DNA of 64,000 nt from Spirochaetia bacterium (GTDB lineage: Bacteria; Bacillota; Desulfotomaculia; Desulfotomaculales; JAJYZD01), in the NCBI GenBank assembly GCA_035530395.1, contig DATKUX010000146.1, positions 273-64,272 of the forward strand, in the 5' to 3' direction. A program made the translations under genes and the position numbers. Shown here one piece after another: positions 13,157-63,187 of the stretch. Numbering within the stretch: the stretch's first letter is position 1; each line of letters opens with the position of its first letter. The notes beneath the pieces were generated by a model, which worked only from the letters and a program-made list of their open reading frames with translations, was not told where the DNA came from and did no database searches.

Positions 13157-14197
13157 GTGCCGGCTATGCGCGTTCTTTGCTACGGGGCCGGGGCCATAGG
13201 CACCCTGGTGGGAGGTTATTTGGCCCGGGCCGGTAACCCCGTCGCCCTGCTGGGCCGCCCAGGCCACGTCGACGCCGTCAACCGACAGGGCCTGGAGATG
13301 CGCCTCCCCGGGGCTCCGCCCGAACGGGTCGGCCTCCAGGCCTATTCCTCCCTTGTCCAAGCCCTCGGCGACGGTTTTGCCCCCGAACTGGCCATCCTGA
13401 CCGTCAAGGGATATGATACCCCGGCGGCGGTAGCCGACCTGCAAGCCCACCTGCCCGCCGGCACCCTGGTCTTGACCCTGCAAAACGGCATCGGTAACGA
13501 GGAACTGTTGGCCGGGGCCCTGGGCCTGGATCGCACCCTCTCCGGCTGCATCACCCTGAGCGTAGGTCTCCCGGAGCCGGGCTGCGTAGAGCTTTTTTCC
13601 ACCAAAGGGGGCATCGGCCTGGCCTCCCTGGACGAACGGACTTCAATCGCTCCCGTGGCTTCCCTGCTCGGCCAGGCCGGCTTTACCGTTATGGTCCAAC
13701 CGGACTGGCGCGCCCTCAAGTGGTCCAAGCTACTCCTGAACGTCCTGGGCAACGCCGTCGCCGCCATTTTGGACCTGGCCCCGCGGGAGGTTTTCGCCGA
13801 CCACGCCCTGTGCGGGCTGGAGAGAGCCGCCTTCAACGAAGCCCTGGCGGTCATGAAGACTTGGGAGTTGCGCCCCGTCGACCTGCCCGGCTTCCCGGTC
13901 CGCCTCCTGGTGTTTCTCTTCCGCTCCCTGCCGCCCACCGTCCTTTCCCCCCTTCTGGCCGGCCGCCTCGGCTCCGGCCGGGGCGAGAAGATGCCCTCCC
14001 TATGGTTGGACCTGCGGAAAGGGCGGACCGAATCGGAAGTGGCGCAGTTAAACGGCGCGGTAGCAGCCTGGGGGAGGAAACTGGGCCTGGCGACGCCGGC
14101 CAACACCCGCATAACAGACGCCCTTACAGACATACTGGCGAACCCCTCCCGCCAGGAAAAATACCGGCACAACCCCGCCGCGCTTCTCAAGCCCTGA
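13157..14197 (+). CDS. 2-dehydropantoate 2-reductase family oxidoreductase (ApbA/PanE-like)
   Basis: Rossmann N-terminus MRVLCYGAGAIGTLVGGYLA and a ketopantoate-reductase-like C-terminal domain (SLWLDLRKGRTESEVAQLNGAV). ATG 13166 is an alternative start. Confidence 0.75.
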   Translation: MPAMRVLCYGAGAIGTLVGGYLARAGNPVALLGRPGHVDAVNRQGLEMRLPGAPPERVGLQAYSSLVQALGDGFAPELAILTVKGYDTPAAVADLQAHLPAGTLVLTLQNGIGNEELLAGALGLDRTLSGCITLSVGLPEPGCVELFSTKGGIGLASLDERTSIAPVASLLGQAGFTVMVQPDWRALKWSKLLLNVLGNAVAAILDLAPREVFADHALCGLERAAFNEALAVMKTWELRPVDLPGFPVRLLVFLFRSLPPTVLSPLLAGRLGSGRGEKMPSLWLDLRKGRTESEVAQLNGAVAAWGRKLGLATPANTRITDALTDILANPSRQEKYRHNPAALLKP

Positions 14198-14242
14198 CCT
14201 GCCGGAAACCGGAAGCTGCAACCATCTCCCGCAGGGCCTCCC

Positions 14243-14271
14243 TTGACAAACTGGACTGAATTTGGTACCAT
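14243..14271 (+). promoter_or_regulatory. Putative sigma-70 promoter of the toxin-antitoxin cassette
   Basis: TTGACA, 17 nt, TACCAT, followed by a GGTAC...GTAC palindrome-like operator and RBS AGGGGG before ATG 14296. Confidence 0.4.
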
Positions 14272-14295
14272 ATTTGTACAGGGGGCGATAACACG

Positions 14296-14577
14296 ATGAA
14301 TATTAAAGAAGATATTCGGGCCATTTCTTATGTTAAAGCCAATGCGGCTGAGATTCTTACGCAAGTGAACGAGACCCATAGACCTGTCTATGTTACTCAA
14401 AATGGAGAGGCTAGGGCGGTTTTATTGGATACTGAATCGTTTGAAAAAATGATGAAGGCACTCGGTTTATTAAAACTATTGGCCCAAGGCGAGCGTGACA
14501 TAGTTGATGGAAAAGTCTTATCGCAGGAAGACTTTTTTCGCTTAAATCGCAATTTTGATAATAAAAACGATGTCTAA
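14296..14577 (+). CDS. Type II antitoxin, Phd/YefM family
   Basis: 93 aa. The N-terminus ISYVKANAAEILTQVNETHRPVYVTQNGEARAVLLDTESFEKM is typical of Phd/YefM. It overlaps the toxin start (ATGTCTAA). Confidence 0.85.
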   Translation: MNIKEDIRAISYVKANAAEILTQVNETHRPVYVTQNGEARAVLLDTESFEKMMKALGLLKLLAQGERDIVDGKVLSQEDFFRLNRNFDNKNDV

Positions 14578-14905
14578 GGGAGTATATCAGGTTTTCTGGA
14601 CACAAACTGCCCAGCAGGATTTGCAAAGAATAATTGAATACATTTCCGCTGACAGCGAGCTTCAAGCACAAAGAGTTTATCTTTCCATTAAGGAAAAAGC
14701 TAATAACTTGAAGCAAATGCCCCTACAGGGAAGAATTATTCCAGAATTAAGATATTATAGTATTTTAATCTATAGAGAATTAATTAGTCCGCCCTGGCGA
14801 ATTATTTATAAGACTGAAGAAAATAAGGTATGGGTGCTTGCAGTAATCGATGGCAGAAGAAATGTGGAGGACATATTGCTTAACAGGTTCATCGATACTG
14901 AATGA
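14570..14905 (+). CDS. Type II toxin, RelE/ParE family
   Basis: MSKGVYQVFWTQTAQQDLQRIIEYI...WRIIYKTEENKVWVLAVIDGRR is a ParE/RelE fold signature. Low-GC cassette. Confidence 0.8.
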   Translation: MSKGVYQVFWTQTAQQDLQRIIEYISADSELQAQRVYLSIKEKANNLKQMPLQGRIIPELRYYSILIYRELISPPWRIIYKTEENKVWVLAVIDGRRNVEDILLNRFIDTE

Positions 14906-14974
14906 TCTTGCTAGCTAACATTTTTTAGCGCCTGAAAGTTCAGTAGTCACCGTCGCGGGTAACTTACTGTTACT

Positions 14975-15283
14975 GGGTTATCCGGTGCGCCTGCTGGCCT
15001 TTCTTTTCCGCTCCCTGCCGCCCGCCTTATTGTCCCCCCTGCTGGCCGGCCGCCTCGGTTCCGGCCGGGATGGGAAATGCCGTCTTTATGGATCGACCTG
15101 CAAAAGGGGCGCTCTAAGTCGGAAGTGACGCAATTAAACGGTGCGGTGGTGGAATGGGGGCAGAAACTGGGCTTTGCGACTCCGGCCAACGCCCGGATCT
15201 TGGCCGCCCTCACCGCCATACTGGCGGACCCCTCCCGGCGGGAAAACTACCGGCATAACCCGGAAGCCCTTCTCCAGTCCTGA
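14975..15283 (+). pseudogene. Orphan 3' fragment of a panE-like gene (diverged duplicate of 13886-14197)
   Basis: The DNA aligns by eye along its whole length with the 3' end of the intact gene. Encoded MPSLWIDLQKGRSKSEVTQLNGAVVEWGQKLGFATPANARI compares with MPSLWLDLRKGRTESEVAQLNGAVAAWGRKLGLATPANTRI. There is no 5' part. Confidence 0.8.
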
Positions 15284-17980: not shown

Positions 17981-18002
17981 GGCTTATTACCTCCTTCCAA
18001 TA

Positions 18003-18956
18003 TTATTTGAAAGCTATGTTCACCAATTTATCCTCAGATTCCTTTAGTATATCACTCATGCAATCCTTGAGGCAGTGTTTGATATTATTATTTACCAATT
18101 CAACAGAAACTACAACACCAGGCCATGGCCGGGTCAAACTACCTTCGTTTCTTTCGTACCCATTTTCCACCGAAAACAAGCCTTCGCCAGATATTATCTT
18201 AAGAGTGCCGCCACTTTTAGCAACTAAACCTTTTGTAATATACAAACCATATCCCACATTACTAAATGAATTTCCATAAATGCCTGGAATCACTCCAGTA
18301 ACTCCTTTTCTTAAAGCTAATGCTATGGCTTCCATATCGGTTTTAAGATTGTACTGTGACGATAGGTGCCGCTTAAAACCAATGCCACAATCGGAAACAC
18401 AGAATTGGGCTTTATTCGTCTGTGGCCAATACTGAGCACAGACGACAGCGCCAAAGAGGCACCCGGAATGTTCTACTGCGTTGGCGATAATCTCTCTTAT
18501 CATATAGCTCATGTAGTTCTTAAGTTCCGGTTCTCTTAAAAAAATTTGAGCTATACTATTGGATATCTTGTCCGTACTGGCAGTACTGTCAACTATCTCT
18601 GTCTCTATAAACCTACCGCTGCTATCCCTTCTATGAAATCCTTCATCCTTTTCAATCTGTAAAATCTTGTAAAAGCTAATCCTTTGTAAATATCTTTCCA
18701 CGTCTCCATCAAAAACATTCTCACTAACTGAGACATATATTCCTGCACCCTGGAGAAACTTAATATAAGCCAGCAGGGTAGCTATCCCACAAGGCTCCAC
18801 CCAGGCCAGTTGACTTATATCAATGAACACTGGCTGAGTATCGTCCCTCATAAGACTGGTTACCAATTTGCCAAGGGATGCCATATCCAGTCTTCTGCCC
18901 AAGTCTACCTCGATCAATGCGGCACCTCCGGCCCTGATTGAACCAGCCAATGACAA
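18003..18956 (-). CDS. GHKL/histidine-kinase-like ATPase with N-terminal STAS-like region (anti-sigma/partner-switching-like)
   Basis: N-box-like IREIIANAVEHSG and G1-like VSDCGIGF. The N-terminal 100 aa resemble a STAS fold (PVFIDISQLAWVEPCGIATLLAYIKFLQ). Low-GC. Confidence 0.6.
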   Translation of the reverse strand: MSLAGSIRAGGAALIEVDLGRRLDMASLGKLVTSLMRDDTQPVFIDISQLAWVEPCGIATLLAYIKFLQGAGIYVSVSENVFDGDVERYLQRISFYKILQIEKDEGFHRRDSSGRFIETEIVDSTASTDKISNSIAQIFLREPELKNYMSYMIREIIANAVEHSGCLFGAVVCAQYWPQTNKAQFCVSDCGIGFKRHLSSQYNLKTDMEAIALALRKGVTGVIPGIYGNSFSNVGYGLYITKGLVAKSGGTLKIISGEGLFSVENGYERNEGSLTRPWPGVVVSVELVNNNIKHCLKDCMSDILKESEDKLVNIAFK

Positions 18957-19308
18957 GCTCTTTTGGTGAGACAGTCATATCAGTAGATTACCATCTTGGC
19001 TACTCTTCATCATTTCTTTCGTTTCTTTACGGGCACACTTCTTTACTAATTCCTTCCGTTCTTCGGCAAGAAAAGTGTATAAAGGTACTCTTTCTTCCTG
19101 AAGACATACCCGGCGATCTTAAAGTCATCATCGGCGAGGTCGAGCCAGTTTTCCGTCTTTGTCTTCACCGTAACGGCCTACGGAAAGACAAAAGGATTGA
19201 AACACCAGCCCGGACTTGGAAAGAGCAAAAAACCGCTTGGGAAGTTCCTAACGATATTTTACTGCCTTTCGTCGCTCGTTTCAATCCCTACCGCAAATAT
19301 TTTACAAA

Positions 19309-22543: not shown

Positions 22544-23338
22544 TCAGCCGGTTCCCAGGAGCAGGGCGGCAAAGTCGGCCGGGCCGATCCGGCCGTTGAC
22601 ACGCAGGCGGCGCAAGGCGTACAGGTCGGCCCCGGGCCTGTTGACCCCGGGCCGGGTGGAAACGGCGCCCCGGTAATACCGGCGGGCCAGCCGGCGGGTC
22701 TTTTGGTCAAAACTTCCGTACGGGTAGCAGAAAAAGGCTACCGGGCGGCCCAAAGCGCTTTCCAGGATGGTCCGGGAAGAGAGTAATTCCGCCACCGCCT
22801 GGTCCGGCGCCAGGCCGGCCATATGGAGGTGCCTGGCGCCGTGGGACTCGAAGTCGATACCGTCCGCCGCCATCTCCCTTATCTGGCCCCACTGCAACAT
22901 CGGCAGAACCGGCCCCCGGTCAAAATAGTTGGTTTTATCAACGGCCCCGGCCACCAGGAATATTGTGGCCGGGAAATGGTACTTCTTTAATACGGGGAAG
23001 GCGAAACGGTAATTGTCCTCGTAGCCGTCATCGAAGGTTATAACCACGGGCCGGGGCTCCAGGGCACCTCCCCGCCGCAGGTAGGCGACCGCCCGGTCCA
23101 GGGTGACCGGGTGGTAACCGGCCCGGGCCAGGTAGTCCATCTGCCGGGCGAACTGCCCGGGGGTAACCTTCAGGCCGGGACCGCCCGGACTGGTCGCCGT
23201 ATCCACCCGGTGATACATGAGCACCGGCACGAACCGCTCCCTGCCCCCGGCCCGTCCCTCGTCGGGCACCAAAATCCCGGGCTGCAGGGCTAAAAAGACA
23301 ATCAGACAGGCCGCGAAAACGAGACTTCTTATAGCCAC
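22544..23338 (-). CDS. Polysaccharide deacetylase (CE4) family protein, secreted
   Basis: Signal/TM N-terminus. NodB motifs VVITFDDGYEDNY and HGARH. Confidence 0.85.
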   Translation of the reverse strand: MAIRSLVFAACLIVFLALQPGILVPDEGRAGGRERFVPVLMYHRVDTATSPGGPGLKVTPGQFARQMDYLARAGYHPVTLDRAVAYLRRGGALEPRPVVITFDDGYEDNYRFAFPVLKKYHFPATIFLVAGAVDKTNYFDRGPVLPMLQWGQIREMAADGIDFESHGARHLHMAGLAPDQAVAELLSSRTILESALGRPVAFFCYPYGSFDQKTRRLARRYYRGAVSTRPGVNRPGADLYALRRLRVNGRIGPADFAALLLGTG

Positions 23339-24747
23339 CGCCCCCCCGGCCCCGGGGCGGGCATGATCATTATCACAAACGGCCCGTAACCATTGGGGGG
23401 CAGGGTTGTCCGCAACACGTAGGTATGGCCGGGCACCGCGTAAGGCAGATCGAACACCACATGTCCCTGCCCCAGCGGCTGGAGGGAACGGGGCGACCGG
23501 TAATAGCCGGCATAGCCGGGATCCCGGAAGGACACCGTCCTTACGACACCGTCCAAATCGAAGACCAGATGCTGGTCATACATATCCGGCGAGGCCAGCG
23601 GCCCGCTGTAAAGGGCCGGTTGAACGGCTACCGCCGCCGGTCCCGACAACTGGAGCCGGAAGACGTACACAATCCCGTAGTTGCCGCTGTCCTGGGCCCG
23701 GACATGATCGTCAAGGCCGTTTGCGGAGACGTCATTGACGAACATATCCGGTTCATAACCTGGGGCGGTGTCCGGACCACTATCACGGGCGAAATACTGC
23801 TGGGCCACCTGCACAGCTACGGGCTTCACCCCCGGTCCCGGGTCATACCTGATGGTCATGGTCCGGTCGGCCCCGGCAAAAATCCCCCGCTGGTGGAACG
23901 GAGTCGGCGAGGGCGCGCCCGGGGCGTCATCGGCCGGAGATATCACGTCCGATTTGTCGGCCAGCCGGTAGAAAGAGGTAAAGTCGGTCCCGTAACGGGT
24001 GATGAGGACCTCCACCCCGATCCCGCCGTCTGATACGGGCGTCACCAACTGACCGGTCTTTTGGTCGCGTAGGACGAAGTCGAACAGGCCCATGGCCCAG
24101 GCTCCCGGGCCCACGTTTTCCTGGTAGAGGTAGGAACCGCCCGGAGCCAGGTCGGCCAACCGGTGTTCCTCGTCGCCGTCCCCGCTGGCAAACCACTTTT
24201 CCACCAGGGTGGTGCCTTCCCGGCCGCCGAAGTCCGGTCCGGGGCCGGACCCCCCGGCAGCCGGCGCATAGTCCACCGGCCCCGCCAGGGTGCCGTTTCT
24301 GTCCGTGGTGCGCATTGTCGCCATACGCGTCCAAAAAAGGGAGACCGCCCGGCCGGTGTGGTTGACGACAGCCACACCTATGGTCGCCGGATCGTCCACC
24401 CGGGGGTTGCGCGGATCGAAAAGCAGGTTTTTATGGCTGTAAAGGAGCCGGAAACGGCCCGACATGACGTTATCCATTTTACACAGTATGCCGGGCCGGT
24501 TGGGAAACTCGGGGCTGTTGCTCAGCACCAGGGGCTGGGTGGAAAGATCCAGGGCCCGGCCCCGGCTGAGTGATACCGCCTGATCGAACACGCTCGCCGC
24601 TACCGTGAACTGACCGGGATCGGCCGGCGCGGGTACAGCGGTTCCCCACCAGCCGGCCAAAACGAGTAAAATTGCAAGAAGTCGCGTCCAACGGTGCAAG
24701 AAGAAGTCACCAAAAGTTGCCGCGCGGAAGCCCCTGGATTTATCCAT
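23329..24747 (-). CDS. Secreted hypothetical protein (no recognisable domain)
   Basis: 472 aa from ATG 24747. Signal-like WTRLLAILLVLAGWWGTAVPAPA. It overlaps the deacetylase start by 10 nt. The start codon lies inside the IscB element end hairpin. Confidence 0.6.
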   Translation of the reverse strand: MDKSRGFRAATFGDFFLHRWTRLLAILLVLAGWWGTAVPAPADPGQFTVAASVFDQAVSLSRGRALDLSTQPLVLSNSPEFPNRPGILCKMDNVMSGRFRLLYSHKNLLFDPRNPRVDDPATIGVAVVNHTGRAVSLFWTRMATMRTTDRNGTLAGPVDYAPAAGGSGPGPDFGGREGTTLVEKWFASGDGDEEHRLADLAPGGSYLYQENVGPGAWAMGLFDFVLRDQKTGQLVTPVSDGGIGVEVLITRYGTDFTSFYRLADKSDVISPADDAPGAPSPTPFHQRGIFAGADRTMTIRYDPGPGVKPVAVQVAQQYFARDSGPDTAPGYEPDMFVNDVSANGLDDHVRAQDSGNYGIVYVFRLQLSGPAAVAVQPALYSGPLASPDMYDQHLVFDLDGVVRTVSFRDPGYAGYYRSPRSLQPLGQGHVVFDLPYAVPGHTYVLRTTLPPNGYGPFVIMIMPAPGPGGRWL

Positions 24748-26584
24748 GGGGAGGAATCGCGGCACCGGCGTCAGCCGGCATCCTTTCGTGTTGCCAACCA
24801 TTGGCCCTTTGCCGCAACCGGCAATACTTTACCGGGATCCCCTGGCAGATCCGTTTCCCCGTGCCTTCCTTGATGTCGAAGTAGCCACTCTTTCTGACAG
24901 CCACCCGGCCGCGCCAACTGCCTGTGTACTTCCCTTTCGGGATATCGGCCGCCACCAGGTCGCCGGTCTTGAAACCGCAGTGGGTCTTCTTCCGTTCTCG
25001 CCACCGATAGGGAAATCCGTACTTGTCGATCCCGGCCATCTGCCGGTTGCCCCGACCGGTGGCCGTGTAGACCTCGACAAACGACACAGCCACCGTTTCC
25101 GGAAGGTTTTTCCCCACGCACGCGGCATCATAGTAGTGGGTCTTCGGTAGTTTTAACACCTGGGTACGATTGTACTTCGTCAGGCCACCGCTCCCGGTTT
25201 CCAGGGGCAACGCGAGAGCCGTGAGCCGTCGATAGAGCCCCCACCTGGTCGCGTTCATCATGGCCGCATCCTTCAGGGGCTGTTTCAACTCTTGGAGCGC
25301 CTTTGGCAGATTATCTGTCCGAATCTGGTCCAGGGCCTTGCCGGACGCCCGCAACTGTTCCAGCCACTCCTCCGGCTGCAGGTTGCCCTTATCATCATTG
25401 CACTTCTTGCAGGCGATGACCAAATTCGAGACCCGGTCCGTGCCCTTCGGCCCGTGGTCCGGGTTCCTTGGAACCACGTGCTCCACGTTCAGAACAGGGT
25501 CTCCGGAGGCACCCCGACAGTAAGCGCATAGGCGGGCAAATTTCTGCAGCAGGTACTCCCGCACCTCGTACCCGGCCAAGGTACCCTGCTGGTACTCGAC
25601 GCCGGAGATGTCCGGATTCTCCATCAGTTGGGTATCGAACCGGATCAACTCCATCGCGATCGCGGTGATGGGCAGGAGCTGGCGCATCTTACACACCCAG
25701 GACAAAGTCTCCTCCACCCGGGCCCGGAGCGAAGGCGGCAGCCACGCCTCCCGGAGACCGTTGTCAACGAACCGCCCGGCCTCATGGCACGGACGGCAGT
25801 ACCGGCTGCCGTGTTTCGCGTTCCGGCCACAGGCGGCACACTTCTCCGGGTGCCGATTGTTGAACCGGGGTTCCCGATACCGGGTCTTCCGGTTCCTGCG
25901 GCTCCGGCGTTGCTCCCGCCGGGCGTCCAGGTTTCCCTTGATGTCCGTCCGGTGTCGACATTCATAGCAGCCTATGGTTACTTTACCGTCCCGGACCACC
26001 GCACCCCCGGTTACTTTCGACCCGGGATCCAGCTTCATGTCGAGGGGTTGCAGAACACTGTCCTCAACCAAGCGGTCTTTCAGTCTGATCGTGAACGGAG
26101 CCATCTTGTGGACCACCGCCCGGCCGTGCTCCAAAAGTAGCCGGGCCCGTTTCTCGCTACATGGCATTAATGGTTTTTTGCGCTTGTCGAGTACATAAAC
26201 CACATGATTTCATCCTTTCTCTCCTTTCGGAGATCCCTTACGGGACCGGTTCCGCGCCGGGCTCGACACCCGGCATCTCTCCTCGCCGATGTTATCCCGG
26301 CTTTGCGCCGGCGGCACTGCTCGCATATAGTACGGTGATTACTGTGAATATGCTGTGTCCATTGTTACATCCACCCCTGCTCGCTGTTTAACCGCCGACG
26401 GCAGCTCCTGGAACTGGAGAAGCATCCCAGGGTGCCGGGACCGGAATAACGTAGTCTGCTCGCTCGGAGATCCCGGCAGACTTGGGCTGGTCATAGCGCC
26501 CTTGCGGGCTTTCTCGCCTAAATCCGGAGACTGTCGGAGGAGGACCTCCTCAAGCCCCCGGCTTTAGCCGTGGGGTCTATGACC
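24708..26584 (-). mobile_element. Non-autonomous IS200/IS605-type element carrying iscB + omega-RNA (copy 1)
   Basis: The ends were defined by comparison with copy 2. Similarity starts at CACCAAA (24708) and stops after ...GTGGGGTnnnTGAC (26583). Subterminal hairpins lie at 24731-24751 and 26556-26575. No tnpA. Confidence 0.7.
24740..26203 (-). CDS. iscB: IscB RNA-guided endonuclease (PLMP + split RuvC + bridge helix + HNH)
   Basis: 487 aa. Motifs: KKPLMPC (PLMP); LDPGSKVTG (RuvC-I); RREQRRSRRNRKTRYREPRFNNR (Arg-rich helix); IAMELIRFD (RuvC-II); CAYC...NVEHVVP...SNLVIACKKCNDDKGN (HNH); KTHYYDAA (RuvC-III). GTG start with an AGGAGAGAAAGGA RBS. Confidence 0.9.
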   Translation of the reverse strand: MVYVLDKRKKPLMPCSEKRARLLLEHGRAVVHKMAPFTIRLKDRLVEDSVLQPLDMKLDPGSKVTGGAVVRDGKVTIGCYECRHRTDIKGNLDARREQRRSRRNRKTRYREPRFNNRHPEKCAACGRNAKHGSRYCRPCHEAGRFVDNGLREAWLPPSLRARVEETLSWVCKMRQLLPITAIAMELIRFDTQLMENPDISGVEYQQGTLAGYEVREYLLQKFARLCAYCRGASGDPVLNVEHVVPRNPDHGPKGTDRVSNLVIACKKCNDDKGNLQPEEWLEQLRASGKALDQIRTDNLPKALQELKQPLKDAAMMNATRWGLYRRLTALALPLETGSGGLTKYNRTQVLKLPKTHYYDAACVGKNLPETVAVSFVEVYTATGRGNRQMAGIDKYGFPYRWRERKKTHCGFKTGDLVAADIPKGKYTGSWRGRVAVRKSGYFDIKEGTGKRICQGIPVKYCRLRQRANGWQHERMPADAGAAIPPHG

Positions 26585-42683: not shown

Positions 42684-43040
42684 TTTCTTCAAGCGGAACA
42701 AGGCCCGTCGCCCCTTCCGGCACAAATTGTTCTAGAGGTATTATGGAGGGTTTGGAGCGGAAATATCACGAGCGGAAAAGAGCCCCGGAACGGACGCCGA
42801 CGACACGGGAAGCCGGCGGAGTGTACGAAACTGGCAAACCCGGACATGGCAACCTGATGACCCAGCCGGTGATGTCGCTACCGGTTGGCCGTTTTTTGAC
42901 AGAAACCGCCAGGAAGTCCCGTTTCATAGGTGATGAAAGGCGGCAAATATGTAAGAAAATGCTTGCAAGTCCGCGGGCTTTTTGTTAGGATGGATTACAG
43001 GAAGAGTTCCTGCAACGTCTGGCCGAAAGGAGGCTTTGCC

Positions 43041-43307
43041 ATGACCTGGGAGGATGCAAAAAGGATTCTTCCCAATCAGTGGTTGATTATTGAACCGATT
43101 CAAGCACACACCGAGGGCAATAAGACGATCCTAGATGACATAACAGTTGTTGACGCTTTTCAAGAGGAGAATAGCAAGAATGCTTTGTTGCAGTATGTCA
43201 AGCTTCACAGAAAACACAGGGAACGGGAATTGCTTGTCGTCCACACTTCCCGACCTGAGCTTGACATTATTGACAAAGGGTGGATTGCGGTGAGGCCAGC
43301 TCTATGA
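43041..43307 (+). CDS. Small hypothetical protein (88 aa) paired with a retropepsin-like gene
   Basis: Strong RBS AAAGGAGG before ATG 43041. ATGA overlap with the next ORF. Low-GC islet. Confidence 0.55.
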   Translation: MTWEDAKRILPNQWLIIEPIQAHTEGNKTILDDITVVDAFQEENSKNALLQYVKLHRKHRERELLVVHTSRPELDIIDKGWIAVRPAL

Positions 43308-43513
43308 ACATACAATCGCGTCACGGGCTACCTTTTACTGAAGTTATGCTTTTACACAAAGGAAAGTCAGTCCTTTTGAAAAATTTCTTAATTGACACCG
43401 GCTCTACATCCACCTTGATATCTGCTGATGTTGCCACTAAGTTAGACCTAGAACCAAAGTCTAATGATATCATAACAAAAAGTCGTGGCGTGGGTCGCGT
43501 TGAATACGTCTAG
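43304..43513 (+). pseudogene. Retropepsin-like (clan AA) aspartic protease, apparently 3'-truncated
   Basis: Catalytic FLIDTGSTSTLIS (D-T/S-G) motif. Only 69 codons before the stop, which is much shorter than I would expect for this family. Confidence 0.5.
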
Positions 43514-43735
43514 ATTTGGGGGAAATGGCCATAGGATAACACCACCTATTTTCAAGGACAGATGGGGCGTGAAACCACAAAGCCGCAATCTCACATCTAA
43601 ACCGGCCACCACCGTACAGATGTTCTTTCTGAAGCTATTAACAGACCCGTAATTCACCCGCTTTACATCACCGCCACTAGGACGCATCACAGATGAAGAA
43701 GGTTATAACTGACCATATTCCTCTCCGGTCATCCC

Positions 43736-43936
43736 TTAGGAAGTTGTCGAACCTCTCAGAGTGTACAAAGCCTCCCCGCAACTCAGGATCCTCACATCAT
43801 CACCGTCGATTTCAAATGACAATTCGTCACCCTCATTGATGCCCAGAGCTTTGCGAATCTCGGAAGGCATGGTAACCGGGCCCTTGGTCGTCACCGTTAC
43901 GGAACCAGTATTTGCCAATTTCCCGGCGTCTTGCAT
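43736..43936 (-). CDS. AbrB/MazE/SpoVT-family DNA-binding protein (antitoxin-like)
   Basis: SVTVTTKGPVTMPSEIRKALGINEGDELSFEIDGDDV is a SpoVT-AbrB swapped-hairpin signature. AAGGAGG RBS before ATG 43936. Confidence 0.75.
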   Translation of the reverse strand: MQDAGKLANTGSVTVTTKGPVTMPSEIRKALGINEGDELSFEIDGDDVRILSCGEALYTLRGSTTS

Positions 43937-44146
43937 GGGGAAAACCTCCTTGCTTCCTTTACGTCTACCAGTGGTATTATGCCGGATTACCAACGGTGGA
44001 AATCATCTTCCGGGCAAGCAAAACTTGGCATAGCATGTCATCGATCTGGAGGAATTATCCAGGAACAGGAAACGAGGGAAGCCTCCCGTATCCCGGGAGA
44101 TCTTCCCTCTTGTAAAATCCTTGCGTACCCTGCTGCGACCGGGGAC

Positions 44147-55153: not shown

Positions 55154-55272
55154 GTCCCCCTTGCGATTAACCTGGCTTTTTTGTGATCTCCCGTGGCGCA
55201 AAACGACTACGTGTTCAAGCATCGTCGGGTCGCTCCACCCAGACCTTTTGACCCACCTCCCTGGGATAATAC

Positions 55273-57209
55273 CACCAAAGATAGCCGGGCGCGGGAGCCC
55301 CTGCATTTATGCATGGGGAGGAGCGCCCGGTATGCCCCCTTTCCTTTTTGGAATCCATTTGGGAATGCCGTGCCCCTTAAGAGTCTTCACAATCGTACCG
55401 ATAATCGACCGGCTTTCGGACAAACGATTCCTGTACGCCCGTTCTTCCAGGGTCAACTTCTTCCAGTCCTTGTCCGCGATCATGTTTGCTTCCAGATGTG
55501 ATACCTCGAAGGTTCCCCGCTCGCGCAATCCGGTGATATAACCGTGAATTCTTATGCCGTCATTGACAAAAGAGACTTTATCGTACAACTGAAAACCATG
55601 CACCCTTCTTACGGCGGAAGTCCTCTCGCATGTTTTGCCTTTCTTGTTCTCGTTCGAGAAGCGGTGAAAAGGTCTGCGGGCTTTTAAACGCCTTTCGATC
55701 ACATGTTCCGCCGGTAGATCAAAATCTAACCCGCCTGCGGCTATCGTCATCGCGTCGATGATCTGCGCCTTTGGTAAACGAATCTTCAACCTGTAATATT
55801 TCGTCTGATAGCCGAAGGTCGCTTCAACCGGCACGCCAAGTTTCTTTAACTCCTGCCAGAGTGCCCATTTGTAACTTTGAGTCAGGGCACTGTACCGAAA
55901 AGCTCTGTGTTTGACTGCTTCTTTCTGGATATTCGGGAATCCGAATTCTTCTGCCGTTCGAGAACCCTTCTTTAAATTACACGTCTCACAGGCGATTACC
56001 AGGTTGGACACCTTGTCGGTACCGCCCCGGGACTTGGGAATAACGTGCTCGATCTCCAGAACCGGATCGCCGCTCTTTCCCTTGCAGTAAACGCATTGGT
56101 GGCCGTGTTTGTGTAGAAGGTACTCCTTGACCTCGTACCCGAAAAGGGCACCCTGCTGATATTCCGTGCCCTGGACCTCCGACCTGGCCATCTTCTGGGT
56201 ATCAAACGCGGTAAGCTCAACCCGGATCTTCGTTATGGGCATAATCCCGACCAGCTTCTTGACCTCCGCCAGGATCGCGTCAACCTTGTTCCGCAATGTG
56301 GGGTTGAGAATCTTATCGGTATCGTGCTTACCTTTCTCGCCGGCACGTTCATGCTGGCATTTCCGACAGACCGCGGCCCGACCGTTCTCAACCTTTTTGA
56401 GGCTCTTTCCGCCGTTCCTGCGTTTGGCCTTTTTCCAGACCTTCGGCGTGTGGTTCACGCCGCAGACCGAGCAGAACGACTTCGGCCGGTTTTGAAAACG
56501 GGACTTCCGGTACCCGGTATTACGGCCCCGGCGCTCTCTCCGGGCGGCGGCCCGCCGCTTAAGCTGCGCCGAGATGTCAGTCCGGAGCAGGATCTCCTTG
56601 GCATAGACGATCTCACATGTTTGCTCTCCCGGCTTGTGCTGCTCTACTGCTACCGGTGTATCGCTGGAACCCGGATCGATTCCGAGTGTCATTTCCACCG
56701 GTACAAATGCCGTACTTTCGTACGTCAACTGGATGGTGAACGGGTTGTAGCACATAATGACAGCCTTGCCGTCTTTGAGGAGATGCCGGACCCGGCCTGG
56801 CCGCCGCGTCGGCGCCAACCGCTTACCCGACTTCGATATTACGAAGATCTGTTGCTGTTCCGACTTTTTCTCGCTCTGCTTCATCAGAAGAACACCTTCC
56901 GTGGTTCCCCCCTGAGGGGGGGATAATGCGGGCCAGGGGCACCCGTTCAATTCCCCGCCTGTGTTCCGCCGGCTTGCCCGGATACGCCGGGCCGTCCCGA
57001 GGTTGACCGCCCCGTCCCCCGAGGGGCTTTTACAGAGCCTCCAGAATGTTCTGCCAGACTGGCTTTTCATCCGGCTGTCTGCTAACCGGTGGAACGCCCG
57101 GTCGCCCGGGCTGGCTGTCGCTCACGGAGCTTCCGCTCCCGCATCAATCCGAGAACATGTCAGGGTGGTTACTGACAAGCCCCCGCATTTATGCGTGGGG
57201 TGATTGACA
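55273..57209 (-). mobile_element. Non-autonomous IS200/IS605-type element carrying iscB + omega-RNA (copy 2)
   Basis: The same terminal architecture as copy 1. It starts at CACCAAA (55273), has hairpins at 55298-55318 and 57181-57200, and ends ...GTGGGGTnnnTGAC (57208). No tnpA. Confidence 0.7.
55307..56884 (-). CDS. iscB: IscB RNA-guided endonuclease, divergent paralog
   Basis: From ATG 56884: MKQSEKKSEQQQIFVISKSGKRLAPT (PLMP-like). Further motifs: GIDPGSS (RuvC-I); RRAAARRERRGRNTGYRKSRFQNR; IRVELTAFD (RuvC-II); CVYC...EIEHVIP...SNLVIACETCNLKKGS (HNH); KAQIIDAM (RuvC-III, with Q where copy 1 has H). The ORF-track start at 57070 reads through the omega-RNA region. Confidence 0.88.
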   Translation of the reverse strand: MKQSEKKSEQQQIFVISKSGKRLAPTRRPGRVRHLLKDGKAVIMCYNPFTIQLTYESTAFVPVEMTLGIDPGSSDTPVAVEQHKPGEQTCEIVYAKEILLRTDISAQLKRRAAARRERRGRNTGYRKSRFQNRPKSFCSVCGVNHTPKVWKKAKRRNGGKSLKKVENGRAAVCRKCQHERAGEKGKHDTDKILNPTLRNKVDAILAEVKKLVGIMPITKIRVELTAFDTQKMARSEVQGTEYQQGALFGYEVKEYLLHKHGHQCVYCKGKSGDPVLEIEHVIPKSRGGTDKVSNLVIACETCNLKKGSRTAEEFGFPNIQKEAVKHRAFRYSALTQSYKWALWQELKKLGVPVEATFGYQTKYYRLKIRLPKAQIIDAMTIAAGGLDFDLPAEHVIERRLKARRPFHRFSNENKKGKTCERTSAVRRVHGFQLYDKVSFVNDGIRIHGYITGLRERGTFEVSHLEANMIADKDWKKLTLEERAYRNRLSESRSIIGTIVKTLKGHGIPKWIPKRKGGIPGAPPHA

Positions 57210-57224
57210 GGTCGAAGAAGCACC
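56885..57224 (-). ncRNA. Candidate omega-RNA of IscB copy 2 (scaffold about 56885-57208, putative guide about 57209-57224)
   Basis: Structured 325-nt region 5' of iscB-2. Its 5' module aligns with copy 1 (ACCCCACG-hairpin-GGGGGCTTG-hairpin-TCTCGGATT...CCAGCCC). The extents are inferred. Confidence 0.65.
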
Positions 57225-58720
57225 TACTCTGCGGAAGTCTGTGGTTGGGCCCACCAGTCGCCTTTTTTAGGTGCAAGCTCATCCTCGGCGCAGGTCCAGG
57301 CGGAACCGCTCCGCCAGGCCTCCCTTATTTCGATGAGATGGCTGAAAAGAAATGCCAAAAAGGCGTTTTCCCTGTCGAACCCAGTATAGCCGGCAATTTT
57401 CGCGAGAACGTAGGTAAGGACGGCCGGATCCTGTTCCCGGTCTATTACCTGCCAGGTTTCCTCCGTCAGTACAACATGCTTTTCGGAGTCCGCAGCAGCT
57501 ATCAAGGCGTGCAAGGTCGTCCCGTCCCAGTTCTTTCCGTCGCAGGCTATTGCTTTCCGGAAGAGCTCGACCTCCTGTTCGGGGTAGGGAAGCTCAAAGG
57601 TGCCAGGTGTGACGTTGGTATCTCCAGTCCTTTGGGGCGCAACGCGCTCCGCCTGCAGTTTGTGTAATATGTTCCGGACTCTTTCTACTGGAACGCCGGC
57701 CATGCCGGCTATTTTCCGGGAAGCCTCTTCCTCCTCAAAGTAAGCACGGGTCCGGTAATACCGGGGTACGAACTCGGCCGGCAGAAAACCGACGGCCCGG
57801 GCCGGTCCGGTAGGTCCCGAATCAAAGGCACCCAGAGCATGAGCGATGGACAATACTTGTTCCAACTCCCACCGGGGGCCGTCGGAGTCCAGGCACGCCA
57901 TCCGCACCAGATCGTACAAGTTGCCCGTACCGTCAAGAATATGGAGGCATTCCCCCAATGCCCCAATGGTCCCGGGGGCATTTTGCTTGAGGCGGTCTTT
58001 CGCCCATGAGTTGCACAGGGTTATGTTTTTTGACACCAGCAGGCGATAAATGGCTGCCTGATCGCCCCTCTGTTCCTCGCTCGTTTTTTGGACCAGTCCG
58101 CTGTCCCTTTGAGCGAGCACGTCCCAGAGCCTTTCCGGATCCAGGAGCAATGGTATATCGAAGGGTTTTCCCTTGATCCCGGTGAGCCACCGGAGGGAAT
58201 GCGCCCAGTCCCGCGCAGCCAGGTTGCCGGTGGCGCAGGCCCGACCGGGAAATAGGTTTTCCGCCAGGGTGATAATGCACCAGATGAAGTCGTGATAAGG
58301 GCAGGACTGGGTCTTTTCGTGAAATACCCTGACCGGCCTCCGGCCCCGGAAGAGGGTATCGGACAAATCTTCGTCGTCCTGCCCTTTATGCTTCGGTCCA
58401 TATATTCTCCGCCGGTAGAAGCCGATATCGCGGTATAACGTGAAGTCTTCGCCCCTCTGCCTTGTCCATCCGTCCCCTACAATGGACAAAAAACGTCCGA
58501 ATTCGTTCCGGCCTTCGATACGGCGGGTGAGAAAAAACCGGTAATAGCCCGACTTGTTCTCCGCGTCCAACCTCTGGAGGGGTAGGGGAAATGCCCGGGC
58601 CAGTGCCAGAGCCTCATCGTAGAAGCCATTCCATTCCCCGGGGTCGATTTCCAAGGGCAGGATGTCCAGACCCAGATAGACTCCCATTTCAAATTCCCTC
58701 CCCACTAACGAAATTTCCAT
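57224..58720 (-). CDS. Hypothetical protein, 498 aa, no recognisable domain
   Basis: Long uninterrupted ORF with normal composition. It is divergent from an XRE regulator, and its stop is 15 nt from the IscB-2 element end. Confidence 0.6.
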   Translation of the reverse strand: MEISLVGREFEMGVYLGLDILPLEIDPGEWNGFYDEALALARAFPLPLQRLDAENKSGYYRFFLTRRIEGRNEFGRFLSIVGDGWTRQRGEDFTLYRDIGFYRRRIYGPKHKGQDDEDLSDTLFRGRRPVRVFHEKTQSCPYHDFIWCIITLAENLFPGRACATGNLAARDWAHSLRWLTGIKGKPFDIPLLLDPERLWDVLAQRDSGLVQKTSEEQRGDQAAIYRLLVSKNITLCNSWAKDRLKQNAPGTIGALGECLHILDGTGNLYDLVRMACLDSDGPRWELEQVLSIAHALGAFDSGPTGPARAVGFLPAEFVPRYYRTRAYFEEEEASRKIAGMAGVPVERVRNILHKLQAERVAPQRTGDTNVTPGTFELPYPEQEVELFRKAIACDGKNWDGTTLHALIAAADSEKHVVLTEETWQVIDREQDPAVLTYVLAKIAGYTGFDRENAFLAFLFSHLIEIREAWRSGSAWTCAEDELAPKKGDWWAQPQTSAE

Positions 58721-58901
58721 CCTCTATTGCCATATGTCGAACACCTTTATCCACACCGCCATGACTTTCAGAGGCCGTCACATCCCCCGCCTACATAGTA
58801 AACGGCATACCGTTGTATGTCAATTGTATTTCGTTAAGACGCGGTAAATAATTTGCTATAAACTATCATTAACGGTTTTCCTGCAAGGAGAAAACGCCTG
58901 G

Positions 58902-59276
58902 ATGGACATTACCAACAGAATCATTGAGCTACGCCAAGCAAGGGGTTACAGTACTACCAAACTTGCCAGCCTTGCCGGCATTGCCCAGTCCACCTTACGT
59001 GAGATCGAAATTGGGAAGACGTCGCCGACCTGGGACACAATCCAAAAGGTTTGTAAAGCCCTGGACATTGGTGTGGCGACTCTGGTTGAAAGTGACCTTT
59101 TGACTTCCTGCCCTGACCCGAGCGAAGATATGTTGCGGGAACCCCCGGGAGATTATCACCCGGAGCTTCCTCCCGACTTGCACCGCATCCTCAATACCGC
59201 CCGACGCCTAACTCCCCGCCAGCGTAAGGTGCTCCTGGATGTGATGGAGGAGTGGGTTCAGATCAATAAGGCGTAA
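58902..59276 (+). CDS. XRE-family helix-turn-helix transcriptional regulator
   Basis: IIELRQARGYSTTKLASLAGIAQSTLREIEIGKTSPTWDTIQKVCKAL is an HTH_3 signature. Confidence 0.85.
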   Translation: MDITNRIIELRQARGYSTTKLASLAGIAQSTLREIEIGKTSPTWDTIQKVCKALDIGVATLVESDLLTSCPDPSEDMLREPPGDYHPELPPDLHRILNTARRLTPRQRKVLLDVMEEWVQINKA

Positions 59277-59394: not shown

Positions 59395-60142
59395 TTCCTT
59401 ACAGCCCCGCAACTCCTCCTGCAGGGCCCTGTGCCGCGGGTGCCTGGCTTTCGGTTATCTACCTCTGCCACTGGGCCGCCGTCCTCTCCAAGAGGGCCTT
59501 AACCCGTACCAGGCAGGCCTCCCGGTAGGCCCAGGCTGATATATCCTTGCGCCATTTCCCGGTAGACGGCTGCGGTCGGGAAGTCCTTTTCTTGGGCTAA
59601 GTCCTTACGGCAATCCAATCGAAGCGCGGAAGAATGCCGGGAAAACAGGTCCACGTCACCCTCGGCCAAAGCGATTTGCAGAAGATATTGCCACTCTTCC
59701 TTCCCCTCCAGAACCTGCAGCAACTGCAGACGGAGTCGCTCCCAGTCGCCCGTCTTCCGAGCCGTACTGCCTACGGCAAGGAAGGAATCGGCCGCAGGAG
59801 AAAATAGCGGCCCTGCCATTCCAGGGCCTTGTCCCATTCTTCCCTGTCCAGATAATACTTGCAGAGCCACCCAACGTACGCGGGACCTGTTCAGTGGGAG
59901 GCAGTTCCCGGAAGGATTGCGGATCCGGGTCAGCAGACCGCCACGATGTGCTTACAGAAATCCCCCCGGGGGCAGGAGTAATCGGTGATGCCGTTCGAAC
60001 CGAGTTTCACCCTAACGTCGTAGGGTTCGTACGACGAACCCTCGCACCGGGCGCGAAGCCCGTCGCCAGAGGATACAGGCTTAATTACGGCGCCGCGGTC
60101 GTAGTAGCGCTCCCCCCGTTCAAAACTTGCGGAGTCGGCCAT
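59395..60142 (-). pseudogene. Decayed SWIM zinc-finger family gene (N-terminal SWIM piece + frameshifted C-terminal piece, middle deleted)
   Basis: 59930-60142 encodes a SWIM-like YSCPRGDFCKHIVAV. 59395-59870 is paralogous at DNA and protein level to 61667-62150 (SADSFLAV.ST..KT.DWER.RLQLL.VLEG) but is frameshifted near its end. Confidence 0.65.
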
Positions 60143-60858: not shown

Positions 60859-61107
60859 ATGCCAAATATTAAGCCGGTTTCAGATTTAAAAAACTATAAC
60901 GACGTTCTCCGCTCCTGCCAAGTTGGAGAACCTGTGTTTTTAACCCAAAACGGCAGAGGCCGCTATGTTCTTTTAGATATGCAGGAATACGAAAAACAGC
61001 AGGCTATGATCAAGCTTCTGTCCAAGCTCTCCGAGGCAGAAGATGTGATTAAGACCGGAGAGGAATGGAAATCACTTGATGACCTCAAAAAAGCACTGGA
61101 GGTCTGA
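60859..61107 (+). CDS. Type II antitoxin, Phd/YefM-like
   Basis: MPNIKPVSDLKNYNDVLRSCQVGEPVFLTQNGRGRYVLLDMQEYEK. GGAGG RBS. Followed immediately by the toxin remnant. Confidence 0.8.
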   Translation: MPNIKPVSDLKNYNDVLRSCQVGEPVFLTQNGRGRYVLLDMQEYEKQQAMIKLLSKLSEAEDVIKTGEEWKSLDDLKKALEV

Positions 61108-61109
61108 GC

Positions 61110-61443
61110 GTGAAATCCAAAACCAGAATCAACCCTTCGGCGATTTCTGATGTACAGGAAATAAAAGCATACATCGCCGAGGACAACCCCGGAGCAGCCA
61201 CAAAGATAGGAAACGCAATTTATTCTAGCATAGAAAAGCTGGCTAATTTCCCTGAAATGGGATTCTCTCTAAGTTCTAAGTTCTAAAATCAATATGAAAA
61301 CGGATTACCGCTTCCTTGTATGCGGCATTTATCTCATATTTTATAAGGTTGAGGGCGAATTCGTTTCCGTTTATCGTGTATTGAACGGAGTTCGGGATTA
61401 CTTATCCATTCTTTTCGCAGAAGAACTACACAGCAAAGATTAA
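61110..61443 (+). pseudogene. RelE/ParE-family toxin inactivated by a 7-bp tandem duplication
   Basis: The GTG 61110 frame gives ...IEKLANFPEMGFSLSSKF-stop. Removing one copy of TCTAAGT (61268-61274 / 61275-61281) restores GFSLSSKINMKTDYRFLVCGIYLIFYKVEGEFVSVYRVLNGVRDY. Confidence 0.8.
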
Positions 61444-61666: not shown

Positions 61667-63187
61667 CTACAGTCCCGCCGACCGTAACTCCTCCCACAGG
61701 GTCTTGTGCCGCGGATACCTGGCTTTAAGCCCGGCCATGTACTCTTCCCACCGATCCCCCGTCCTCTCAAAGAGGGCCTTTGCCCGTACCAGACACCGGG
61801 CGGCTTCCCGATAGGCTTCCCTCCGCTGCTGTCTGATATGTTCCTGCGCCATTTCCCGGTAAAGGGCGGCGGCTTCGGCGGGAAAATCCTCTTCCGCCAC
61901 ATGGGCCAGGTCTTTACGGTAATTCCACCTGAGCGAGGGCGAAACCCGGGAATACAGCTCCAGTGCCCGGCTTGCCTCTCCCTCGACCAGGGCTATGGCC
62001 AAAAGCTCCGGCCACCTTTTCTCGCCTTCCAAGACGTGCAGCAACTGCAATCGAATCCGTTCCCAGTCGTCCGTCTTCTGAGCCGTACTACTTACGGCAA
62101 GAAAGGAATCAGCCGAAGGCTGCCGGAGGAAGTCGCGGGTCTGCAACTCCAGGGCTTTCCCCCACTCTTCCCGACTCAAATGGTACTCTATGAGCAACTG
62201 CCCATGCGCGGGATCCTCCTCGGACAGACCGGTCACAAAATCAACCGCCTGCTCCATGAGGCCACCTGTTACCAACTGGTCGACCACCCGGGCAATTACC
62301 TCCGGCAGGTACAGGAAATTTTCCCGGGCCATGGTAAGAGCCTCTTCCGCTTTCCCCTCCTTGATCATCAGAAACATGACCTGCTCCGGAGGCCCGGTTT
62401 CTTTGATGATTGGCACCCGTTCCTGCGCCCTCGTCTGCCAGGCGGTCAGCCTTTCGCCGAGGTAGGCCCGGTTGCCGCCACCCACCATTGCTGCCCGGAT
62501 CTGTACTTCCAGTGGAGCCCACTCTTCGGCAGAAGTATGCTCCACAATCAGATCAAAGGCTCCCGGAGCCAGATCAATACCACCCAGATCGGCCAGTTCG
62601 GCCGCCAAAAGGGCGGCAAACCATCCGGCGCGCCCCTCTCCGTTGCCTTCGGACAGGCACTCCTCCATCAGTTCCACACTCTCCCCGCCGAAGACCGCTA
62701 TCTCCCCCTCTTCGTCCAACTCCTGGATATCCTCGTAGTTTTCGGCCAGGGCGGTCAGGATCGCTTGGCACACGGTGCCCGCTCCGACCCAGTCGTTCTT
62801 GTCGGCCATATCCCGGGCCGTGACGAGCAGGCCCCGCAGGTCCCTTTCGATCAGGCGGCCGTCCTCCTGCTGCAGTGCCTCGGAGGCCAGGCTCAGCCAG
62901 GCCTCCCCGTCCGCCTGTCCCCTGCCATCCGCGAGGATGGGGGTGGTCACCGTGCCCAGGTCCACCACCTCGCAACCCGTAGACAGTAATCCTTTCACCA
63001 ATGTGTTTTTCAACCGGGGGGAACTCAGGCGGTTGTCCATCCCCACCAGAACCTGGGCCAGACCCTTTCTTTGCAGAAAGGTGCCGAAGGCGCGGCCTAA
63101 AGAGGCAACCGTATCGTCGGTGAGATCGCGCTCAGCCACGCCACGAATGTCGTATTCGCGAAAGATGCTCGGATTTAAAATAGACAC
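61667..63187 (-). pseudogene. Chimeric ORF: N-terminal about 86 aa of phosphomannomutase/phosphoglucomutase fused to a SWIM-associated family middle+C-terminal region
   Basis: MSILNPSIFREYDIRGVAERDLTDD...GCEVVDLGTVTTPILA is the PMM/PGM domain I start, but the active-site Ser loop and domains II-IV are absent. From about 62929 downward the sequence is paralogous to the 59395-59870 fragment. Confidence 0.65.

Follow-up and report, generated by a model that had tools for sequence, protein, structure and literature searches.

The locus analysed here, called copy 2 below, is the second of two IscB elements in a 64,000-nucleotide (nt) stretch of contig DATKUX010000146.1 (assembly GCA_035530395.1; this whole stretch is referred to as the window). 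Its closest described counterparts are OgeuIscB-ωRNA, CzcbIscB, TbaIscB, GstIscB and the HEARO RNA family. OgeuIscB-ωRNA (PDB 7XHT, 8CSZ) is the reference ribonucleoprotein. Its protein shows the same succession of PLMP, RuvC-I, bridge helix, RuvC-II, HNH, RuvC-III and WED/TI parts as copy 2, and its ωRNA likewise lies 5' of the gene and contains a guide-adaptor hairpin and a pseudoknot. However, the two proteins share about 20-25% identity, H340 of OgeuIscB corresponds to Q374 in copy 2, the ωRNA measures 206 nt there and 324 nt here, and the beta-hairpin REC linker of OgeuIscB contrasts with a CxxC...CxxC zinc finger of about 40 aa. CzcbIscB, from an anaerobic digester metagenome (PMC13180657), is 38% identical to copy 2, which has a longer zinc-finger insertion and reads PKAQIIDA where CzcbIscB reads PKTHYYDA. 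TbaIscB (PDB 9K30) is the best solved-structure sequence match of copy 2 and harbors a CxxC zinc-finger insertion in the same place, whereas it is CRISPR-associated, keeps the RuvC histidine (PKTHMNDA) and is about 32% identical. GstIscB of ISGst5 (Geobacillus stearothermophilus) resembles copy 2 in its co-oriented upstream gene and in a tnpA acting in trans, as would hold for copy 2; its transposon-encoded motif (TEM) is TTCAC and its target-adjacent motif (TAM) TTCAT, compared with TTGAC and a YCAY core predicted for copy 2 (Meers et al., preprint). HEARO (RF02033) shares with the copy 2 ωRNA the 5' GUCA...CCCC hairpin, the P1 stem, the pseudoknot and the CUGUAAA and GUCAACC blocks, whereas two further 3' hairpins of copy 2 lie outside the model.

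Element and protein of copy 2

Copy 2 is an IS200/IS605-type element of 1,933 bp on the minus strand (55276-57208). It lacks a transposase gene and contains a 324-nt ωRNA scaffold (56885-57208) followed by a 525-aa iscB (ATG 56884, stop 55307). In our judgement this interval is very probably a non-autonomous insertion sequence of the IS200/IS605 family, with an IscB RNA-guided nuclease and its matching ωRNA as sole cargo. It is a second genuine IscB-ωRNA selfish element, typical of its kind except for one swapped RuvC catalytic residue, and, judged by its homologues, it comes from a small Q-bearing IscB lineage within a known kind of element. Feature coordinates are listed in Table 1.

A preliminary description of the window had proposed a second iscB of 525 aa starting at ATG 56884, and matches in Pfam, NCBIfam, PDB and Foldseek searches bear this out. 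The protein reaches 308.6 bits with NCBIfam NF040563 (guided_IscB, equivalog "RNA-guided endonuclease IscB"; cut-off 175). Pfam detects RRXRR (2.2e-42), HNH_5 and HNH, with a split RuvC domain interrupted by HNH. Sequence matches in PDB are TbaIscB (1e-40) and OgeuIscB (5e-28), the alignment to solved IscBs spanning residues 7-388, and a Foldseek search with the AlphaFold2 model returned IscB structures on top (8CSZ, 7e-22; 9K30, 1e-21). The ratio of nonsynonymous to synonymous substitution rates (dN/dS) between copy 2 and its closest relative, L001, is 0.14, and the protein is thus under purifying selection. Both the catalytic and the zinc-binding residues of the HNH domain (H280, N294 and N303; C264, C267, C299 and C302) are invariant. 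The same description had claimed that domain order, HNH and RuvC motifs are shared with copy 1; here one correction applies, as the RuvC motif of copy 2 reads D-E-Q-D and not the canonical D-E-H-D. The CxxC...CxxC insertion is, by its position and neighbouring motifs, a REC-like zinc finger, and its cysteines C138, C141, C173 and C176 are kept across the copy 2 lineage. CzcbIscB and TbaIscB possess a REC-like zinc finger at the equivalent position, between the motifs FNNR and LTP (PMC13180657).

The ends of copy 2 are those of an IS200/IS605 element, with subterminal palindromes in the same orientation and no terminal inverted repeats. A 23-nt direct repeat (57178-57200 and 55296-55318) is 91% identical, and its two differences are compensatory in the hairpin (C:G to T:A). 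The end-hairpin motif was found four times in the window, solely at both ends of both elements, against a chance expectation of 0.25, and as single-stranded DNA all four sites adopt the same fold (4 bp, one-base bulge, 4 bp, 4-nt loop). Therefore, the earlier view that both copies carry terminal hairpins of the same kind is confirmed. In each related element the two end hairpins also match each other and covary, as in the long hairpin of L168. The hairpin of copy 2 lies 22 nt from the left and 8 nt from the right element end, and a similar asymmetry of hairpin distances is known from IS608.

Among the relatives (12 to 14 elements compared), conservation opens at GTCAAT (57208) and closes at RTGR, and the flanks are unrelated. 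All elements compared (14/14) end in (G/A)TG(G/A), which is YCAY on the top strand, followed by unrelated sequence, and the other flank is without a motif. The extent of copy 2 and the placement of TEM, TAM and guide follow the published layout, with a guide preceding the scaffold beyond the right end of the transposon and a TAM directly adjoining the left end (Meers et al., preprint). In the IS200/IS605 convention the end with the ωRNA counts as the right one (Meers et al., preprint), so that the RNA region previously described as lying upstream is the right end of the element in transposon terms, and it measures 324 nt and not 325. The first four bases of the ωRNA end (G1, T2, C3, A4) are invariant in 12 relatives, and by analogy with the GstIscB motif we infer that TTGAC is the TEM of copy 2. 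The predicted guide begins at the last base of the stop codon of the upstream open reading frame (ORF) and has a single match in the window. The predicted TAM, GTGG, agrees with measured TAMs from the relatedness group of copy 1, where CzcbIscB has RTGA and a neighbouring ortholog GTGAA (PMC13180657, supplement).

ωRNA scaffold

Relatives of copy 2 were gathered at 50-88% protein identity. About nine close-lineage loci came from metagenome and genome scans, which gave mainly distant IscBs, and the others from exact-protein look-ups. An ωRNA block is common to all aligned relatives (11/11) and opens exactly at GTCAAT. In a 1-kb search, the HEARO model matched 56945..57208 of copy 2 over the full model length with 40.3 bits (E = 1.2e-6), and the P1 stem, 5' hairpin, pseudoknot and multi-stem core of the HEARO consensus are all present. 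The curated structure, in which an RNAalifold core is combined with a HEARO-type P1 stem and pseudoknot, comprises 76 pairs, with 91.1% of cells paired in the 12-sequence alignment. Two-sided changes occur in 39 of these 76 pairs, compared with 17.1 ± 2.7 in shuffled alignments (0/500 reach 39) and 11-16 in slid controls. Covariation backs helices 1, 2 and 5 to 12, and both the P1 stem and the pseudoknot have support; in the latter GCC:GGC is changed to GUG:CAC in the relatives L166 and L167. Thus, the separate structured RNA suspected upstream of iscB is backed by covariation; it directly precedes the gene and has the same orientation. Helix 3 (GUCAG/CUGAC, columns 44-61) is weakly supported, with 52% of cells paired, and should be taken as specific to copy 2. 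A pairing of columns 1-4 with columns 333-336, returned by RNAalifold, was dropped for the HEARO-type P1 stem and pseudoknot, which covary.

All relatives' ωRNAs score below the HEARO threshold (42.6-74.3 bits; two were undetected). Therefore, the ωRNAs of this lineage are systematically missed at curated Rfam settings.

RuvC site and alternative readings

Several observations weigh against the main reading of copy 2 given above. The AlphaFold2 model of IscB is only moderately confident (predicted local distance difference test, pLDDT, 67). The ωRNA lies below the HEARO gathering score of 83 and is missing from a whole-window scan at the gathering threshold. No tnpA, and hence no Y1 (HUH) TnpA typical of IS200/IS605, was found in the 64-kb window by tblastn with one IS200 TnpA sequence as query, which as a positive control did find a TnpA-like ORF in L151; copy 2 is therefore classed as non-autonomous, and its current mobility rests on an unseen gene. 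A look-up of the empty site via contigs encoding the exact upstream protein yielded L172 and L173; in both of them the site is occupied and the contig is interrupted within the ωRNA. Finally, in SpCas9 an alanine at the position matching Q374 gives a nickase.

The RuvC residues of OgeuIscB are D61, E193, H340 and D343 (PMC9640706). Copy 2 has D70, E223, Q374 and D377 and thus departs from the D-E-H-D tetrad. Glutamine occupies the H340 position in all 55 site-covering clusters of homologues at 40% identity or more, whereas more distant site-covering homologues have histidine in 60 of 62 cases and arginine in the other two. Among the 150 best 50%-identity representatives, histidine is present in 124, glutamine in only four plus the query, and D, N and A are isolated. 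As far as these homologues tell, the RuvC-III histidine position is less invariant across IscBs than usually stated. Four of the 50%-identity representatives (P0273, P0276, P0382 and P0380) have N, D or A there.

Across the Q-bearing lineage D70, E223 and D377 are strictly kept, as is H280 of the HNH domain. The H-to-Q change is lineage-wide and conserved and is therefore not a sign of decay, and because the other three residues are conserved we think that the RuvC site is probably still used. Since copy 2 matches the curated family model and shows every other feature of the family, we read Q374 as a variant within IscB. In a limited literature collection no Q-type or RuvC-inactive IscB was found described, and the IscBs assayed in PMC13180657 include no Q-bearing ortholog. 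It is tempting to speculate that this small coherent lineage (Bacillota, Methanosarcinales), with its long REC-like zinc finger and a glutamine at the general-base position, has an altered RuvC chemistry, although we regard this as unlikely. If so, it may be a natural HNH-only nickase of the target strand that still homes, or its RuvC may work without the histidine that Cas9 requires.

A rival reading, that the exchange has disabled RuvC throughout the lineage and left a target-strand nickase acting via HNH, or mainly a DNA binder, draws on the same distribution of glutamine over clusters and representatives, on its alignment with H340 and on the lack of Q-bearing orthologs in the PMC13180657 set. 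We consider it doubtful: strict conservation of D70, E223 and D377 is unexpected of a dead RuvC site, and other IscBs here and there accommodate D, N or A in place of the histidine. Catalytic residues of this kind have disappeared from nuclease-dead relatives of TnpB and Cas12k. Should the Q lineage nick rather than cut, it would offer a compact natural nickase and put to the test whether homing depends on a double-strand break. The lineage-invariant H407 was considered as a relocated catalytic histidine; by its sequence offset it falls near OgeuIscB H374, an RNA-contact residue of the WED domain, and is probably not catalytic.

Mobility and guide expression

Two related elements, L003 and L006, are 94% identical and occupy different sites, and there was therefore recent movement in the lineage. 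Decayed relatives also exist: a frameshift in L006:1855-3422 gives 10 stops, the called product of L004 covers only 60% of the protein, and in P0024 the motifs are degenerate, with D70 and the Q/D motif missing. A TnpA-like (IS200-type) ORF (L151:4637-5013) is located directly downstream of a distant IscB on an uncultured Pelotomaculum contig, and this relative from the same group of bacteria looks autonomous.

Copy 2 might be an immobile relic: its gene looks intact, but transcription as an RNA-protein pair, or mobilisation for want of a transposase, would have ceased. The missing tnpA and the decay of some relatives (the frameshifted L006 and the degenerate P0024) would fit such a relic. We regard it as improbable: the ORF, both ends, the TEM and the RNA helices of copy 2 are intact, the dN/dS value is low, and most IscB elements are without a nearby tnpA and are still regarded as functional (Meers et al., preprint).

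For a functional IscB-ωRNA element, the following cycle can be proposed. Transcription reading through from outside, most likely from the gene at 57224-58720, would cross the right end and yield a guide of about 16 nt fused to the 324-nt scaffold. IscB, translated from ATG 56884, would bind this guide-ωRNA. A TnpA from another part of the genome would excise the element as single-stranded DNA via the two bulged hairpins, and the resulting donor joint would read guide match followed by GTGG. The IscB-ωRNA complex would then recognise and cut the donor joint, and repair from the sister chromosome carrying the element would restore it. On the minus strand, no terminator-like site was found between the 498-aa ORF and the ωRNA. 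The upstream gene is co-oriented in the loci of all relatives, which fits read-through guide biogenesis as proposed by Meers et al. (preprint), who found that upstream genes tend to be co-oriented and describe the homing model.

Start codon and gene calling

An ORF of 587 aa (55307..57070, minus strand) is present, as the preliminary description had noted when it warned that the ORF track merges the RNA region into the coding sequence; counted from the internal ATG at 56884, the product has 525 aa. The frame of copy 2 stays open for 79 codons upstream of this ATG. In the relatives an in-frame stop interrupts the frame 2 to 55 codons ahead of the start that they share, so that the start at 57070 is not conserved. 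Together with the Shine-Dalgarno sequence in front of 56884, this marks the 57070 start as an accident of copy 2 and supports the start at 56884 proposed earlier. In the public annotation (P0001, 547 aa) the gene begins at 56950, 22 codons ahead of the conserved start, and the final 66 nt of the ωRNA therefore fall inside the call. That the region holds no separate RNA, and that its conservation reflects a protein starting at 57070 or 56950, draws on the open codons and the public call but can hardly be maintained, since the relatives' frames close, the region changes as compensatory pairs and not codon-wise, and Pfam RRXRR/HNH homology begins only at residue 75 of the long ORF, i.e., residue 13 counted from ATG 56884. 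Copy 2 is thus a worked example for annotation, in which the protein is named correctly, the ωRNA is sub-threshold in Rfam and the gene call reaches 66 nt into the RNA.

Relation to copy 1

Copies 1 and 2 share 36% protein identity along 395 aligned aa, and at the DNA level the elements are about 62% identical. Therefore copy 2 is not a recent duplicate of copy 1, and the strong divergence judged by eye in the preliminary description holds in the pairwise protein alignment. By this comparison, the copies are two old IscB lineages and not a duplication. With CzcbIscB, whose activity has been shown experimentally, copy 1 shares 55% identity and copy 2 38%. The HEARO match of copy 1 (26272..26583, 111.9 bits) is above threshold.

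The left-end sequences of the two elements (55272-55321 and 24709-24754) are about 80% identical over 50 nt, whereas the adjoining coding sequence is at noise level. Near-identical left ends despite differing IscB lineages suggest that a single TnpA may serve both copies in trans. The repeated invasion that had been considered for this window fits different IscB lineages with such similar left ends, and co-resident copies with divergent proteins and nearly the same ends would fit one TnpA serving several nuclease-carrying families.

In the left-end hairpin of copy 2 the 5' arm codes for the C-terminal PPHA and the loop carries the TAA stop. The same arrangement is seen in both copies (55307-55321 and 24740-24754, minus strand), with a 5' arm encoding a shared PPH[A/G]; the last residues of the protein are therefore set by the transposon end. 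Copy 1 stops some 10 nt short of the probable TTG start codon of a gene for a secreted protein (23329-24698; interval 24698-24712), and the long ORF call of that gene (start 24801) overlaps the copy 1 IscB element.

Table 1. Positions of features of copy 2, copy 1 and the neighbouring genes in the window.
Feature	Position	Strand	Description
iscB coding sequence	55307..56884	-	525 aa; order: PLMP/RRXRR N-terminus, RuvC-I (D70), arginine-rich bridge helix, REC-like zinc finger, RuvC-II (E223), HNH, RuvC-III (Q374, D377), C-terminal WED/TI region
HNH of copy 2 IscB			H280, N303; C4 zinc site C264/C267/C299/C302
CxxC...CxxC insertion	56357..56473	-	C138, C141, C173, C176; between RFQNR and LNPT motifs
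Codon CAG (Q374)	55763..55765	-	aligns with RuvC-III catalytic histidine, OgeuIscB H340
Shine-Dalgarno GGAAGG	56895..56900	-	10 nt before ATG 56884; purine-rich at same place in relatives
ωRNA scaffold	56885..57208	-	324 nt; HEARO-like core 56945-57208
ωRNA 3' part	56885-56944	-	two further terminal hairpins and ribosome-binding site
Right-end subterminal imperfect palindrome	57180..57200	.	CCCCACGCATAAATGCGGGGG; doubles as first ωRNA hairpin
Left-end subterminal imperfect palindrome	55298..55318	.	CCCCATGCATAAATGCAGGGG
Left-end terminal segment	55276..55297	-	CTCCCGCGCCCGGCTATCTTTG; between hairpin and inferred cleavage site; kept in relatives and copy 1
Terminal GTCAA (TTGAC on +)	57204..57208	-	inferred TEM at right-end cleavage site
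Predicted guide	57209..57224	-	GGTGCTTCTTCGACCT; outside element; 16-nt length assumed
Predicted TAM GTGG (CCAC on +, TnpA target site)	55272..55275	-	directly beyond left end
Upstream ORF	57224..58720	-	498 aa, co-oriented, no family match; ends 16 nt before scaffold
Promoter-like site	58795-58823	-	precedes upstream ORF 57224-58720
HTH_3 (Cro/C1-type) regulator	58902-59276	+	same low-GC stretch as copy 2
Phd/YefM antitoxin and ParE toxin	60859-61107, 61110-61286	+	same low-GC stretch as copy 2
Copy 1 element	24713..26583	-	ωRNA 26204-26583, iscB 24740-26203, same end hairpins
Copy 1 predicted TAM GTGA	24709-24712

Genomic neighbourhood

The host belongs to the Peptococcaceae and is uncultured; its RapZ shares 93% identity with that of a Peptococcaceae metagenome-assembled genome and about 72% with Pelotomaculum. 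The region at 55-63 kb has a guanine-cytosine (GC) content of 0.50-0.59, compared with about 0.60-0.65 around it, and carries a ParE/Phd pair, a helix-turn-helix (HTH) regulator and gene fragments. Given these features, its earlier labelling as an accessory island is reasonable. A defence-system reading of the neighbouring genes was rejected, as PADLOC and NCBIfam gave no match for the 498-aa ORF and a 73-aa ORF. On the minus strand, a 506-aa ORF (61667-63187) combines about 85 N-terminal residues of phosphoglucomutase/phosphomannomutase with a DUF6880-like C-terminus, and a shorter DUF6880-like fragment (59499-59870) and a SWIM-like CxC...CxH fragment (59930-60142) are found nearby. The phosphoglucomutase-DUF6880 ORF and these fragments look like decayed or rearranged paralogues. 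Elsewhere in the window, against a background of about 0.6, low GC was also seen in the kilobases 14001-15000 (0.455), 18001-19000 (0.414) and 43001-44000 (0.470).

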